DNA from: Candidatus Hadarchaeota archaeon
GTDB lineage: Archaea > Hadarchaeota > Hadarchaeia > Hadarchaeales > JAWBSP01
Assembly (NCBI GenBank): GCA_964474885.1
Contig: CAYYWO010000003.1
Span: 57,337 to 121,336, forward strand
Length of the DNA: 64,000 nt
Direction of reading: 5' to 3'
This document shows, in pieces, positions 10,942 to 63,512 of this stretch. A program made the position numbers and the translations under genes. Positions within the stretch are counted from its first letter, which is position 1. The number at the start of each line of letters is the position of its first letter. The notes below the pieces were generated by a model. That model did no database searches. It was not told the origin of the DNA and worked only from the letters and a program-made list of their open reading frames with translations.

Positions 10942-11151
10942 TTGATAATGGGAGCAGTGATAGGAGGACAAAATCTCCTGAAAGGGAGGAGGAAAGCCCT
11001 GGCGGAGGCGGCCAGGGATTTGGGCCCGGATCAGCTGAAGAGGGTGGAGGAGCTCCTAAAAAGCTGGAGCGATGAGAACAGAGCGGAGCTGACCAAGCTC
11101 TTGGGGCCGGACCGGGCGAAGCGTCTACTCAGAGACTTGGGGATCGTTTGA
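10942..11151 (+). CDS. Hypothetical small protein (69 aa).
   Basis: An ORF in an otherwise tight gap. It is charged and helical with no recognisable family. Confidence 0.25.
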   Translation: MIMGAVIGGQNLLKGRRKALAEAARDLGPDQLKRVEELLKSWSDENRAELTKLLGPDRAKRLLRDLGIV

Positions 11152-11776
11152 GCAGGCGCATCCTCCTGACGAGTAGGAACTTGACCTCCTCCCAAGGGGA
11201 GAAGAGGCGGGCCGGGCCTATTCTGGTTCTGCCCTTCCTGATGGCCTCGAGGACGCCTTCCATGCTAGATGCCTCAACGAGGGTGTAGGCTCTCCCCAGA
11301 GTCTCTAGGAGGTGGGCATCGGATCCGGCGGTCATGGGTTTCCCCAGCTCTCTGCAGACCTGTAGAGCCCTCGCGTTCCTGGAAAAGATGTGGGGATTGA
11401 GGACCTCGATGGCATCCAAGTCCAGGCGCCTTATAGCGTCCTTCAGACTGGATCTGCCCACTGCATACGGATGAGCGGCCACGGCGATGCCTCCCTTCTC
11501 GTGTATCAGCTCGACGGTTTCCTCCGGGGACAGACCAGCTGGTATGTCCTCCACCACGCCGAGACCTAGGATGTCCCCTTTTGCGGAGCGCACCTCAATC
11601 CCGGGTAGCACGAAGTCCTTGTCGATTTTTCTCCCGACTAAGCTCCCCCGAACGGTATTGTGATCTGTTATGGCTATGCCGTCTAGCCCGATTTTCCTCC
11701 CCCACCTGATGAGTTCCTTGGGAGTGGGGATGGCATCCTCCGAGTAGACTGAGTGGACGTGCAGGTCGATCTTCAT
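11129..11776 (-). CDS. PHP-domain metal-dependent phosphoesterase.
   Basis: 'MKIDLHVHSVYS' is the PHP motif I. There are further His/Asp motifs, and the length is about 215 aa. Confidence 0.65.
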   Translation of the reverse strand: MKIDLHVHSVYSEDAIPTPKELIRWGRKIGLDGIAITDHNTVRGSLVGRKIDKDFVLPGIEVRSAKGDILGLGVVEDIPAGLSPEETVELIHEKGGIAVAAHPYAVGRSSLKDAIRRLDLDAIEVLNPHIFSRNARALQVCRELGKPMTAGSDAHLLETLGRAYTLVEASSMEGVLEAIRKGRTRIGPARLFSPWEEVKFLLVRRMRLLKRSPSL

Positions 11777-11798
11777 ATCAAAAGCCTCGCACTAGCTT

Positions 11799-12410
11799 AT
11801 GATGGCAACCGCTGGTTTTGACGAGGCTGGCAGGGGGCCGATTCTAGGGCCGATGGTCCTCTGCGGGGTCAGCTTTGCACGTGAGGTGCTCCCGGATCTG
11901 AAAAGAGCCGGGGTGAGGGACTCCAAGCAGGTCGGCCCGAAAAAGAGAGAAGACTTAGCCAAACTCATCCAGGGACTTGCCACAGACATCAGAGTGGTGG
12001 AGCTCTGGCCCAGGGAAATCGACGAGCTGAGGACCTGCAAGAACCTGAACGAGATAGAAGCGGAGGTCTTTGCCAGGATGATCGACGAGCTCCAGCCCGA
12101 GGTGGCATTCATAGACTCCCCCGATCCGAGACCGGAGCTCTTCCTCTTCAGAATGGAACGGTATCTGCGCAGTAAGCCTAAATTGGTCGTGGAGAACGGA
12201 GCCGACCGAAAATACGTGGAGGTCTCGGCGGCCTCAATAGTGGCTAAAGTGACCAGGGAGGCAAGGATACAGGAACTCCACCAAAAGTACGGGGATTTTG
12301 GGTCGGGTTACCTGACGGATCCAAAAACCGTCTCCTTCTTGAAAAAATGGTTGAGGGAGAAGGGGATGTATCCGAGTTTTGCTAGGAGGTCTTGGAAATT
12401 CTCTCTGTAA
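11799..12410 (+). CDS. rnhB: Ribonuclease HII.
   Basis: 'AGFDEAGRGPILGPMV' and 'IDSPD' are the RNase HII catalytic motifs. The length is about 203 aa. Confidence 0.8.
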   Translation: MMATAGFDEAGRGPILGPMVLCGVSFAREVLPDLKRAGVRDSKQVGPKKREDLAKLIQGLATDIRVVELWPREIDELRTCKNLNEIEAEVFARMIDELQPEVAFIDSPDPRPELFLFRMERYLRSKPKLVVENGADRKYVEVSAASIVAKVTREARIQELHQKYGDFGSGYLTDPKTVSFLKKWLREKGMYPSFARRSWKFSL

Positions 12411-12499
12411 TAATTAGCGGCCTGCCTCTGTCCCATCCATTGAGGGCGATGATGGAGGGTGTTACGGTGCAAAGTGCCACCAACACATCCATTACACCG

Positions 12500-12960
12500 T
12501 CCACATCGCCGCCTGTTAGGTGAGCCCCCCTTACCAAACTAAGTCCGTGACGCTCCAAGCCGGCAGCCCGGAAATTGAAGCCCCTGTCGCGCGCCGTGGT
12601 TAGCTCCGGGTCACAGCGGGGTGGTCCACCAAGGGCTTCCCGGAGGCCTGGCGGGCGCGCCTTGTGGGGCTCTAAAAATTAACCGACGGATCAAAAAAGG
12701 GCCCCGCTGTCCCCCAGCACACTAACCCCGGGGCTCATAGGTTGCCTTTCCGGCGTCCTCCGCCCGGTAACCCTCGTGGTGGGGCGAGCGGGGCCAACCC
12801 CGCCTGTCACGCGCCAGGGTTGACCCGAGTTCATAGCGAGGTGGTCCACCAATTTGCTCCCCGAGGACCCATTGGCGCGCCTTCACGGCGGGGTGGCTCC
12901 AGTGTCCCCGCGACGATGCACCGGTGATCCCTTGTCACACCAGCTCTCGCTTCCCGCGGG
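12500..12960. ncRNA. Candidate structured non-coding RNA of unknown identity (possibly an RNase P RNA, SRP RNA or 5S-like element). GC-rich, with two ~77 nt repeat units.
   Basis: A ~600 nt gap with no credible ORF and much higher GC than its surroundings. Unit A (12585-12661) and unit B (12818-12893) both run GYCRCGCGCC...GGUGGUCCACCAA...GGCGCGCC, with internal complementarity (GCGCGCC/GGCGCGC and CUCCGGG/CCCGGAG). 'CCCGGAAAUUGAAGCC' resembles the 5S loop C 'CCCGGAAGUUAAGCC'. Strand and ends are unknown. Confidence 0.25.
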
Positions 12961-13030
12961 ATATCCCCATCATCGCCAACTAACTTCTTTCTCTGTCCAA
13001 AAAATGTTATTTTTTCGCTCAAGAGTTGCT

Positions 13031-13435
13031 ATGGAGGAAGACTGGGAACTTCGGCAGATAAGGTTGAAGAAGATGGGAGAGATGCTCACCCGGGAGGAGC
13101 GAGGAGCAGGGCATGAGGCCAAAGTGCACGAAATATCGGACGACGAATTCGACCGAATTGTCCAAGAAAAGGAGTACGTCCTCGTTGACTTCTGGGCACC
13201 TTGGTGCCCCCCATGTCTCATGATAGCACCGATCGTGGAAGAGCTGGCAAGGCAGTACCCGCAGGTCTTCTTTGCGAAGATAAATGTCGATCAGCACCAG
13301 AGGGTAGCCACGAGGTACGGCATCATGAGCATACCCACCCTGCTCCTGTTTAAGAGAGGCAAGCTAGTAGACCAGCAAATCGGAGCGGTCCCCAAGAGTA
13401 GGCTGGAGGAGAAGATCCGGAAGTTGCTGGGATAA
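13031..13435 (+). CDS. Thioredoxin.
   Basis: 'DFWAPWCPPCLMIAP' is the WCPPC active site. The start is trimmed to ATG 13031 ('MEEDWEL'); the track ORF begins at 12854 inside the GC-rich ncRNA-like region. Confidence 0.75.
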   Translation: MEEDWELRQIRLKKMGEMLTREERGAGHEAKVHEISDDEFDRIVQEKEYVLVDFWAPWCPPCLMIAPIVEELARQYPQVFFAKINVDQHQRVATRYGIMSIPTLLLFKRGKLVDQQIGAVPKSRLEEKIRKLLG

Positions 13436-25571: not shown

Positions 25572-26197
25572 TGGCGCCCTCGTCAGATATAAAATTCATC
25601 CAGTATGGATGGGACAGAGCCAGCCTCGAGGAGTTTCTCAGCGAAAAGTTAGGACACGCAGGATATGGTGGGATAGACATCCAGAAGATGACTGGGAGCA
25701 CGAAAATCACCCTGTATGTGGAGAGACCGGGAGTTGTCATAGGCAGGGGTGGTGAAAGCATAAAGGAGCTGCAGGAAATTTTGGAAAAACGCTTCAAGCT
25801 GGAGAAGCCCGAGATAGAAGTCCTCGAACTCCAAAATGCTGACCTCTGTGCTCCAATCGTGGCAAAAAGGATAGCATCGGCCTTGGAGCGGGGGATAAGT
25901 TACAGGAGGATTGCTCACGCTTTCTTGAGAAGGGTAATGGCAGCTGGGGCAAAAGGAGTTGAGATCAGGATTTCGGGGAAGATAGCCGGCGAGAGAGCTA
26001 GATCGGAGAGGTTCTTCCAGGGATACCTGAGTAAGACGGGGGAGCCAGCGGAGAAATACGTCAGCAAGGGTCAGGCCACGGCCAAGCTGCCACCTGGCAT
26101 TGTGGGGGTCAAAGTCAGAATAATGTTGCCTTTCCCAGTTGAAGATTTGAAGAAAGGAGCAAAGAAGGAGGGGGAAGGTGCCCAAGCTTCGAGCTGA
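25571..26197 (+). CDS. rps3: Ribosomal protein uS3.
   Basis: The KH domain and '[16 protein letters not shown]'. The start is trimmed to ATG 25571, overlapping the L22 stop (TGATG). The track ORF starts at 25457. Confidence 0.9.
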
Positions 26198-59239: not shown

Positions 59240-59313
59240 GCGGCCGTAGTCTAGCCAGGTTAGGACTCAGGCTCCCCGGGCCTGATGCGCGGGTTCAAAT
59301 CCCGCCGGCCGCA
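59240..59313 (+). tRNA. tRNA with a non-canonical anticodon loop 'UCCCCGG'. The best reading is Gly(CCC) with C at position 33.
   Basis: A hand-folded cloverleaf: acceptor GCGGCCG/CGGCCGC, D arm, anticodon stem CAGGC/GCCUG, T arm GCGGG-UUCAAAU-CCCGC, discriminator A, followed by T5. Confidence 0.65.
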
Positions 59314-63437: not shown

Positions 63438-63512
63438 GGGGCCGTGGGGTAGCCTGGACTAGCCTACCAGCTTGGGGTGCTGGTGACCTGGGTTCGAATC
63501 CCGGCGGCCCCA
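63438..63512 (+). tRNA. tRNA-Pro (anticodon GGG).
   Basis: A hand-folded cloverleaf: acceptor GGGGCCG/CGGCCCC, anticodon stem CCAGC/GCUGG with loop UUGGGGU (U33, G37), T loop UUCGAAU. Confidence 0.8.

Follow-up and report, generated by a model that had tools for sequence, protein, structure and literature searches.

A Predicted Three-Hairpin Box H/ACA Guide RNA beside rnhB in Hadarchaeota and a Diverged Copy of One of Its Hairpins

We analyzed the gap between rnhB and a thioredoxin gene in a 64,000-nucleotide stretch of DNA from Candidatus Hadarchaeota archaeon (NCBI GenBank assembly GCA_964474885.1, contig CAYYWO010000003.1, positions 57,337 to 121,336 of the forward strand), referred to below as the window. 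Positions 12979 to 12692 of the window very probably encode, on the minus strand, a three-hairpin box H/ACA small RNA (sRNA), here designated sRNA-1, which would guide rRNA pseudouridylation, the predicted targets of the pockets of its hairpins A, B, and C being helix 89, the 2586 site, and helix 69, respectively. sRNA-1 is the Hadarchaeota counterpart of Pab40/HgcG (RF00064), Pf7, and Afu4. The original prediction for this region had considered an undescribed structured RNA with tandem hairpin modules; the locus is indeed structured and noncoding, but the RNA lies on the minus strand and consists of H/ACA guides, a known kind of RNA and not a new class.

Genes and features of the locus

rnhB occupies positions 11799 to 12410 on the plus strand (Pfam RNase_HII match; E, 4e-41), and the real start of the thioredoxin gene is the ATG at 13031 (Pfam Thioredoxin match; E, 2e-30). 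The gap between them had been described as free of plausible open reading frames (ORFs) and richer in GC than its surroundings, and both statements were borne out. Besides an upstream TTG extension of the thioredoxin frame, the longest ORF is at most 63 amino acids. The GC content of 12578 to 12979 is 66.4% versus 52.3% for the entire window, and in 200-nt windows it is 62 to 69.5% over 12500 to 12900 and 50 to 60% in the flanks. At gathering thresholds, a scan of the whole window with Rfam returned just two tRNA genes (59240 to 59313 and 63438 to 63512, plus strand). The features of sRNA-1 and its surroundings are as follows.

12692 to 12979, minus strand: sRNA-1 (hairpins A, B, and C), from the best Rfam match (HgcG), conservation, the paired alignment, and RNAalifold.
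12997 to 13016: AT-rich, TATA-like box (AAAAAATAACATTTTTTGG on the minus strand), a promoter predicted from the sequence.
12967 to 12977, minus strand: 5' strand of the kink turn (K-turn) closing hairpin A, composed of GGC (canonical [C] stem), GAU (bulge), GA, and UGG (noncanonical [NC] stem).
12903 to 12961, minus strand: hairpin A, from sequence reading and folding.
12895 to 12902, minus strand: 3' strand of the K-turn closing hairpin A, CUG-GA-GCC, directly after the ACA box of A.
12798 to 12893, minus strand: hairpin B with its outer helix (hairpin proper, 12880 to 12805), from sequence reading, alignment, and RNAalifold.
12700 to 12795, minus strand: hairpin C with its outer helix (hairpin proper, 12784 to 12708), from sequence reading, alignment, and RNAalifold.
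12693 to 12698, minus strand: T6 run immediately following the helix that closes hairpin C, a predicted archaeal terminator.

Anatomy of the hairpins

The region holds four hairpins, namely A to C and a further hairpin, D, treated separately below. All four have the full H/ACA anatomy, i.e., a lower stem, a pocket, an upper stem with a K-turn or kink loop (K-loop), and an ACA box, an anatomy seen only on the minus strand. For the structural rules of the archaeal H/ACA family, see PMC4652768 and PMC7991803. A strict H/ACA descriptor run over the 64-kb window recovered hairpin D alone, plus weak hits that look like chance.

Hairpin A has an 8-bp lower stem (UCCCGCGG/UCGCGGGG), a pocket of 9 + 6 nt, and a 7-bp upper stem (GCUGGUG/CACCGGU); its guides are GAAGCGAGA on the 5' side and GCAUCG on the 3' side. 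Its K-loop, UGACAAGGGAU, can be read as U-GA-CAAGG-GA-U, and its ACA box (12905 to 12903) lies 14 nt below the upper stem. The pocket and the second G.A pair are 10 layers apart, which is the value in productive Pyrococcus folds (PMC4652768).

In hairpin B, an 8-bp lower stem (GCGCGCCA/UGGCGCGU) and a 6-bp upper stem enclose a pocket of 7 + 7 nt with the guides AUGGGUC (5') and (UC)AACCC (3'). The K-turn, GA...UAU-GA, has a UAU bulge, a GC/GC canonical stem, and the cap GGUG-GAC-CACC. The box is G-ACA, with ACA at 12807 to 12805, and the distance from upper stem to ACA is 14 to 16 nt depending on the closing pair. Hairpin C has a lower stem of 10 layers with one mismatch (CCCCA-C-CACG/UGUG-C-UGGGG), a pocket of 7 + 6 nt with the guides (G)AGGGUUA (5') and GGUUAG (3'), an upper stem of 5 to 6 bp, and the K-turn GGA...UAU-GAG. 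Its box is likewise G-ACA (ACA at 12710 to 12708; AAA in relatives), 16 nt from the first target-pairing base, a distance of 14 to 15 nt in two of the related loci (L006 and L098). As far as can be read from the letters, the K-turns of B, C, and D would all have a 3-nt bulge and a GC/GC canonical stem.

Conservation and covariation

The best named relatives of the RNase HII encoded in the window belong to Hadarchaeales/Hadesarchaea, with identities of at most 65%. Contigs of relatives were grouped by RNase HII cluster as P0002 (L001 to L004), P0007 (L005 to L008), P0003 (L097), and P0005 (L098). In all of these contigs a gap of about 310 to 360 nt follows rnhB, and its minus strand holds A, B, and C in this order (nhmmer E, 1e-84 to 1e-95). 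sRNA-1 is thus found directly downstream of rnhB in five distinct Hadarchaeota sequences (the window and four other lineages), the RNase HII proteins of which are just 62 to 66% identical. In L002 (4609 to 4620) and L006 (4607 to 4621), where the sRNA and rnhB are convergent, the final helix and the T-run of the former reach up to or into the rnhB stop codon (spacer, 0 to 2 nt). Five more distant Hadarchaeota loci (L093 to L096 and L099) lack both the gap behind rnhB and an sRNA at this place, and neither nhmmer nor a covariance model of hairpin C found the sRNA in 80 metagenomic rnhB loci (RNase HII identity of at most 48%), which were the matches from an RNase HII alignment search of metagenome contigs.

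A PHP-domain gene, rnhB, and sRNA-1 are kept together in L001 to L008, L097, and L098, as at 11129 to 13435 of the window. The gene beyond sRNA-1, on the side far from rnhB, varies by lineage: it encodes a DNA ligase, a cNMP-binding protein, an Oxidored_q6 subunit, or, here, thioredoxin. Since this gene is different in every lineage, the promoter side of sRNA-1 looks like a recombination breakpoint.

A structure drawn by hand was evaluated on the alignment of the five sequences. Standard pairs make up 88.6% of its cells, versus 35 to 49% (maximum, 48.7%) when the 3' partners are slid by 1 to 3 columns, and RNAalifold, run independently, gives the same helices. The covariation that had been proposed as a check on this region was found: the structure is conserved, seven pairs changed on both sides among the five sequences, and the covariation score was reached by none of 500 shuffles. 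Among the covarying pairs, U-A becomes C-G in hairpin A (upper stem) and in hairpin B (apical stem), C-G becomes U-A in hairpin C (lower stem), and the whole lower stem of B is compensatory (GCGCGCCA/UGGCGCGU to CGCACCA/UGGUGCG in relatives). The guide strands are far better conserved than the stems, and the variants that they do show (AGCGAG to AGCAAG in A; AGGGUUA to AGGGUCA in C) are compatible with an unchanged target; in L006, the guide of hairpin A carries a G-to-A change that still pairs with a target U.

In a permissive Rfam scan of 12350 to 13080 on both strands (E up to 10), HgcG (RF00064) was the best match, on the minus strand at 12775 to 13016 (21.1 bits; E, 0.0011). HgcG also ranked first among the Rfam families at the corresponding position of L097 (21.5 bits), L002 (18.3 bits), and L006 (17.0 bits), always on the minus strand.

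Predicted targets

Guide targets were sought as matches of the form 5'-arm/UN/3'-arm in surrogate rRNA, i.e., a Haladaptatus plasmid operon (L009) and an Escherichia coli operon (L010); according to the Rfam scan, host rRNA genes are absent from the 64-kb window. The best sites of hairpins C and B were the two expected from the literature. For hairpin C, the best site in the archaeal operon was 23S helix 69, GUAAC[UA]UGACCCUC (4 + 8 bp), which is equivalent to E. coli U1915; shuffled guides matched this score in 2% of cases anywhere and in 0.1% at the helix 69 site. For hairpin B, the best contiguous site was GGGUU[UA]GACC in the Haladaptatus surrogate (5 + 4 bp), at 23S U2614, the equivalent of E. 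coli 2586. Hairpin C is accordingly predicted to guide the helix-69 pseudouridine (Psi) of 23S rRNA, and hairpin B a uridine of the peptidyl transferase center (PTC) in GGGUU[U]AGACC (E. coli 2586; Psi2605 in Haloferax volcanii).

Pab40 is an archaeal box H/ACA RNA with three hairpins that guides pseudouridylation (RF00064). In Pyrococcus abyssi, its motif 1 has been reported to direct the formation of Psi2588 in helix 89 and its motif 3 that of Psi2016 in stem-loop 69, and motif 2 of Afu4 and Pf7 is assigned to a position that is Psi in Haloarcula, fly, and mouse (PMC2377435). In H. volcanii, stem-loop 1 (SL1) of sR-h45 makes Psi2605 with an unpaired UA and needs just 3 + 5 bp, whereas SL2 makes the helix-69 pseudouridines Psi1940/1942 (PMC7075261).

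Hairpin A carries a 5' guide that could pair with CUUGCU, which the surrogate has on the 3' strand of helix 89, a helix that varies strongly between lineages; in the Rfam alignment this guide is identical to that of Pab40 motif 1 at 8 of 9 positions. By homology with Pab40 motif 1, a helix-89 uridine is the most likely target of hairpin A. A scan of the genome contig collection with the predicted helix-89 target pattern, GCTNTCTYGCTNNCTCGATGTCGG, gave two bacterial chance hits and nothing else, so that either our model of the target context is wrong in detail or the Hadarchaeota assemblies lack 23S rRNA. Two other candidate targets were rejected: the A-loop (E. coli U2554/2555) for hairpin B, which needs 3 to 4 unpaired target bases, and the PTC site U2506 for hairpin A, for which the upper stem would have to open.

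Closing helices

Every hairpin is enclosed by a further helix beyond its ACA or ANA box (in all five lineages for A to C), which places the box inside an internal loop. The outer helix of hairpin B is CCCCGCC/GGCGGGG (12887 to 12893/12798 to 12804, minus strand), conserved in the form CCCGCC...ACA-GGCGGG. That of hairpin C is GGCCCCGC/GCGGGGCC (12788 to 12795/12700 to 12707, minus strand), which appears in relatives as GGCCCCGC...A(C/A)A-GCGGGGCC. Hairpin D has GAGCCCC...ACA-GGGGCUU (12666 to 12672/12578 to 12584, minus strand).

Hairpin A is closed by a K-turn. The 5' strand is kept as GGY-RAU-GA-NGG in the five lineages, with a perfect box C, GUGAUGA, in L006 and L097, and the 3' strand is kept as ACA-CNN-GA-RCC; the third canonical (C-stem) pair covaries (C-G, U-A, or U-G), and RNAalifold predicts the helix. 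The closure resembles the K-turns of box C/D RNAs and ribosomal Kt-7 in its 3-bp GGC/GCC stem, GAU bulge, tandem G.A/A.G pairs, and noncanonical stem, and we take the tandem sheared pairs together with the GGC/GCC stem to be the same as in Haloarcula marismortui Kt-7. Unlike box C/D RNAs, it has no box D consensus (only NNGA is kept), no C' or D' boxes, and no methylation guide, and it encloses an H/ACA hairpin where a box C/D K-turn encloses antisense elements. Indeed, when sRNA-1 was tested as a box C/D sRNA, we found only the box C-like 5' strand and the NNGA 3' strand around hairpin A and no internal C' or D' boxes; the two strands are separated by an H/ACA hairpin of about 70 nt, unlike the 12-nt antisense spacers of box C/D RNAs.

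The K-turn closing hairpin A is presumably a second L7Ae site. The closing helices may clamp the modules, stabilize the fold, and protect the ends of the RNA. On a shallow check of the literature, we found no description of such a clamped arrangement.

Points that weigh against the assignment

Several observations tell against the guide RNA assignment or against parts of it. The HgcG match in the window (21.1 bits) is below the gathering score of 77 bits, as are those in the relatives. The original prediction held that a confident Rfam hit would make the RNA a known one; no family reached its gathering score, and the best sub-threshold family was HgcG. The assignment of sRNA-1 therefore rests on anatomy, conservation, and guide-target matches. 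The strand and function are predictions from sequence, and the covariation statistics, obtained from five sequences, are weak and thus indicative, not conclusive. The outer helices of B and C are invariant in sequence and rest on conservation and energetics, hardly on covariation.

The match of hairpin B to U2614 is just 5 + 4 bp, and 24% of shuffled guides reach the score somewhere (0.03% at U2614 itself). In the window, hairpin B carries a 1-base deletion in the upper stem, leading to two G-U pairs and an extra A by the K-turn or else to two mismatches. Besides, in each of the five lineages one of its guide strands can pair with the other (GGGU/ACCC; 12866 to 12872/12817 to 12823), and from this complementarity free hairpin B RNA is predicted to close its own pocket. 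For hairpin A, no site in the archaeal surrogate operon stood above shuffled guides (51% anywhere).

Comparison with known guide RNAs

Pab40/HgcG of Pyrococcus and Thermococcus, Pf7 of P. furiosus, and Afu4 of Archaeoglobus fulgidus have, like sRNA-1, three H/ACA hairpins in the same order, and every hairpin carries a K-turn or K-loop plus an ACA box. The order of the Pab40 pockets is helix 89, the 2586-equivalent PTC site (1932 in P. abyssi itself), and helix 69. Pab40/HgcG and sRNA-1 have almost the same 5' guide in motif 1 (AAGCGAG), and AACCCUGGC is common to their 3' guides of motif 2. In surrogate rRNA, hairpin C is matched to helix 69 as is motif 3 of Pab40, and hairpin B to the same site as motif 2 of Afu4 and Pf7.

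sRNA-1 also differs from these RNAs. It matches the HgcG model with just 17 to 21 bits, against a threshold of 77; that model derives from Thermococcales and covers the AT-rich flanks of their sequences. The relatives of sRNA-1 have AAA as the third box, and hairpin C has a lower stem of 10 layers, one of them mismatched. In the Rfam consensus of Pab40 the next hairpin follows straight after each ACA, whereas sRNA-1 has spacers of 20 to 25 nt that form the closing helices, and its first hairpin lies inside the box C/D-like K-turn; the consensus leaves no room for such helices.

sR-h45 of H. volcanii (PMC7075261) resembles hairpins B and C, with SL1 directed at Psi2605 in GGGUU[UA]GACC and SL2 at helix 69. 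Unlike sRNA-1, it has two hairpins, a 56-nt linker, and no hairpin for helix 89. SL2 leaves UNUN unpaired and makes two pseudouridines, whereas hairpin C can pair up to the second U, with only UA unpaired. The H/ACA-like sRNAs of Pyrobaculum lack a lower stem (Bernick et al. 2012, as summarized in PMC4652768). They and the Hadarchaeota RNAs are both lineage-specific departures from the canonical layout of lower stem and ACA, but in the Hadarchaeota RNAs the lower stem is complete and a further helix follows below the ACA box. No H/ACA RNA from Hadarchaeota was found in the literature searched.

Hairpin D and the insertion next to rnhB

Relative to the other lineages, positions 12411 to 12699 (about 290 nt), between the rnhB stop codon and the 3' end of sRNA-1, are an insertion in this genome. 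Three features were read in it.

12578 to 12672, minus strand: hairpin D with its outer helix (hairpin proper, 12660 to 12585), a paralogue of B.
12512 to 12577: segment E, containing a small hairpin, GCUUCAA...UUGGAGC (folding z-score, -0.9).
12428 to 12511: segment F, a long, near-perfect hairpin, GGCGAUGUGGA...UCCAUCAUCGCC (folding z-score, -2.1).

Hairpin D, the first 95 nt of the insertion, corresponds to the first of two repeat units that the original prediction had described. The repeat is real: two 81-nt copies, 12583 to 12663 and 12803 to 12883, are 72% identical without gaps (local alignment score of 53 versus 18 ± 2.6 in shuffles), with an invariant core of GGUGGUCCACC. The second unit, that is, hairpin B, is at 12805 to 12880 (12798 to 12893 with its outer helix) and not at 12818 to 12893, about 13 nt lower than proposed. 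The complementary ends (GCGCGCC/GGCGCGC) and the inner stem (CUCCGGG/CCCGGAG) are present as described. The suggested pairing between the cores of the two units is disfavored, for GGUGGACCACC forms a local apical stem that covaries from U-A to C-G in relatives.

Hairpin D has a perfect 7-bp GC lower stem, an upper stem of 7 bp (6 to 7), a pocket of 9 + 9 nt (or 6 + 7), the same apical stem as B, and the box G-ACA, with a distance from upper stem to ACA of 14 to 16 nt depending on the closing pair. Outside the guide strands it closely matches B. The 5' guide, CGCCAGGCC, differs from that of B at 7 of 8 positions, so that 7 of the approximately 23 differences between the hairpins fall within this 8-nt guide (probability of about 0.001 under an even spread). 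In relatives, hairpin D is absent directly downstream of rnhB, where sRNA-1 abuts the stop codon. Judged from these comparisons, hairpin D is clearly a copy of B that is specific to this genome among the loci compared. Since the differences are concentrated in the 5' guide while the stems and the ACA box are intact, we take it to be a newly born guide, retargeted to another uridine.

Segment E resembles neither sRNA-1 nor anything else in the window or the fetched loci, and it has no Rfam match. Segment F lacks a pocket, a K-turn, and an adjacent ACA, shows no similarity elsewhere, and yields only chance microRNA-like matches in Rfam. Several origins were considered for the two segments and rejected. 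They show no resemblance to hairpin A or C, of which they might have been decayed copies; lacking a pocket, a K-turn, and a neighboring ACA, they do not qualify as H/ACA hairpins; and boxes D, C', and D' of a box C/D sRNA are missing. A fragment of an rnhB pseudogene and a repeat element were likewise rejected.

Around segment F, a K-turn-like arrangement can be drawn on the plus strand (GGGC-GAU-GA-UGG, 12444 to 12455/GGU-GA-GCCC, 12519 to 12527), using the same 11-mer as the 5' K-turn strand of sRNA-1. It is probably due to chance, as there are no C' or D' boxes and the 4b.4n pair is G.G. The 11-mer forms a perfect inverted repeat (12445 to 12455/12967 to 12977) that brackets the region, although matches like this occur in the window no more often than expected by chance (E, 2 to 3.6); for this reason, and in the lack of a bulge-helix-bulge motif, a role as a processing or circularization stem was rejected. 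In addition, the flank of segment F at 12426 to 12440 has a 15-nt perfect match in reverse orientation at 25605 to 25619 (blastn-short E, 0.009).

A rival explanation accepts sRNA-1 and regards D, E, and F as nonfunctional debris of a partial duplication or rearrangement. It is, in our view, the less likely reading. D, E, and F are missing from all four related lineages that have the sRNA, E and F are without recognizable features, and the spot appears prone to rearrangement, the far-side gene differing by lineage. No target of D was found in surrogate rRNA or in the window: in the archaeal surrogate operon no site stood above shuffled guides (95% anywhere), and none of the candidates examined, i.e., the 5' end of 16S rRNA (GGUUGAUCCUGCCGG), helix 89, tRNA T-arms, and window transcripts, had canonical geometry. 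D has no clearly placed promoter before it, and its K-turn is nonstandard, with A.A instead of A.G at the second sheared pair (2b.2n; A at 2n). K-turns with A at position 2n, however, still bind L7Ae (PMC3985660). Moreover, D keeps both perfect 7-bp stems, the apical stem, ACA at the right distance, and a closing helix of its own, and the clustering of its substitutions in the guide is the pattern expected of retargeting, not of decay. We thus prefer to read hairpin D as a retargeted guide.

Other readings of the locus

It might be argued that the minus-strand hairpins mirror a novel structured RNA of the plus strand, e.g., an element in the 3' untranslated region (UTR) of rnhB. Most helices can form on both strands, the fold z-score over 581 nt is -1.95 for the plus strand versus -0.83 for the minus strand, and the K-turn-like arrangement around segment F is drawable on the plus strand. 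Nevertheless, this reading is very unlikely. Only the minus strand has the ACA boxes, the GA/GA signatures of the K-turns, the T-run, and a number of conserved G-U pairs; read on the plus strand, G-U pairs such as that of columns 48 and 74 (in 5 of 5 sequences) become A-C mismatches. The guide pockets fit known Psi sites only in the minus-strand reading, HgcG hits the minus strand in four loci, and the covariance model of hairpin C scores 101.5 bits on the minus strand versus 21.3 on the plus strand. In relatives, the rnhB stop codon abuts the RNA, which leaves no space for a UTR element.

That the region is RNase P RNA, the 7S RNA of the signal recognition particle (SRP), or a diverged or pseudo-5S rRNA, as had been suggested for a GC-rich, structured, noncoding region with short resemblances to 5S loop C and RNase P P4, is next to inconceivable, because none of the Rfam covariance models of these families matched either strand of 12350 to 13080 at E up to 10, the strings in question fall in the antisense of hairpin C (12720 to 12742) or in the unconserved segment E, and the conserved part is wholly explained by three H/ACA hairpins. 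A decayed or frameshifted protein-coding gene, suggested by long stop-free stretches rich in Pro, Arg, and Gly, has an equally negligible probability, given that the ORFs are so short, that substitutions are compensatory in stems and indels of 1 to 2 nt are unfit for a reading frame, and that tblastx and tblastn against the fetched loci and RNase HII proteins gave only the RNA-level match and stop-containing chance hits.

Proposed expression and mechanism

Transcription of sRNA-1 would run away from the thioredoxin gene, driven from the AT-rich box around 13000 and ending at the T6 run (12698 to 12693). The T-run of AAAAAATAACATTTTTTGG stops 19 nt ahead of the base with which the K-turn stem begins; in L002 and L097 there is a T-rich box 20 to 23 nt upstream, and L006, where the box is further upstream, also has a T5 run at the place equivalent to the T6 run. 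The AT-rich box is near-palindromic (AAAAAATGTTATTTTTT) and lies between the divergent sRNA-1 and thioredoxin genes. It could serve both as a TATA box, and if it is shared, the thioredoxin mRNA would be leaderless or nearly so.

The way in which archaeal H/ACA ribonucleoproteins work is well established, and we carry this scheme over to sRNA-1. Each hairpin would bind one set of Cbf5, Nop10, and Gar1, together with L7Ae on its K-turn or K-loop, and the lower stem and ACA box would serve as the anchor for Cbf5. Both strands of the internal loop would then pair with the rRNA flanking the target uridine, which Cbf5 would isomerize to pseudouridine. The box C/D-like K-turn, the presumed second site for L7Ae, would form as the 5' end of the RNA pairs with the stretch behind the first ACA box, and GC-rich helices would close B and C, leaving the ACA boxes in internal loops; as clamps, they may stabilize the fold and protect the ends.

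We tentatively raise the possibility, without considering it probable, that the H/ACA RNAs of Hadarchaeota are an undescribed architectural variant, with clamp helices below the ACA boxes, the first of them formed through a C/D-type K-turn with a second L7Ae, and with the newborn guide D followed by about 150 nt of RNA. Hairpin D might then serve a lineage-specific Psi or a nonribosomal target.

Implications

sRNA-1 adds a pseudouridylation guide to the annotation of Hadarchaeota, an uncultured phylum, and it is one that current Rfam thresholds miss. These findings have modest uses and do not overturn current understanding. They suggest that the pseudouridines of helix 69 and the PTC are guided by one ancestral three-hairpin RNA in Thermococcales, Archaeoglobales, Halobacteria (in a two-hairpin form), and Hadarchaeota. 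Hairpin D, if our reading is right, would neatly illustrate, in a natural case, how duplication of a single hairpin can give rise to a new guide specificity. The closing helices and the 5' K-turn, if real, would bear on how much structure the PUA domain of Cbf5 tolerates around the ACA box and on the stabilization of small RNAs by L7Ae at high temperature.

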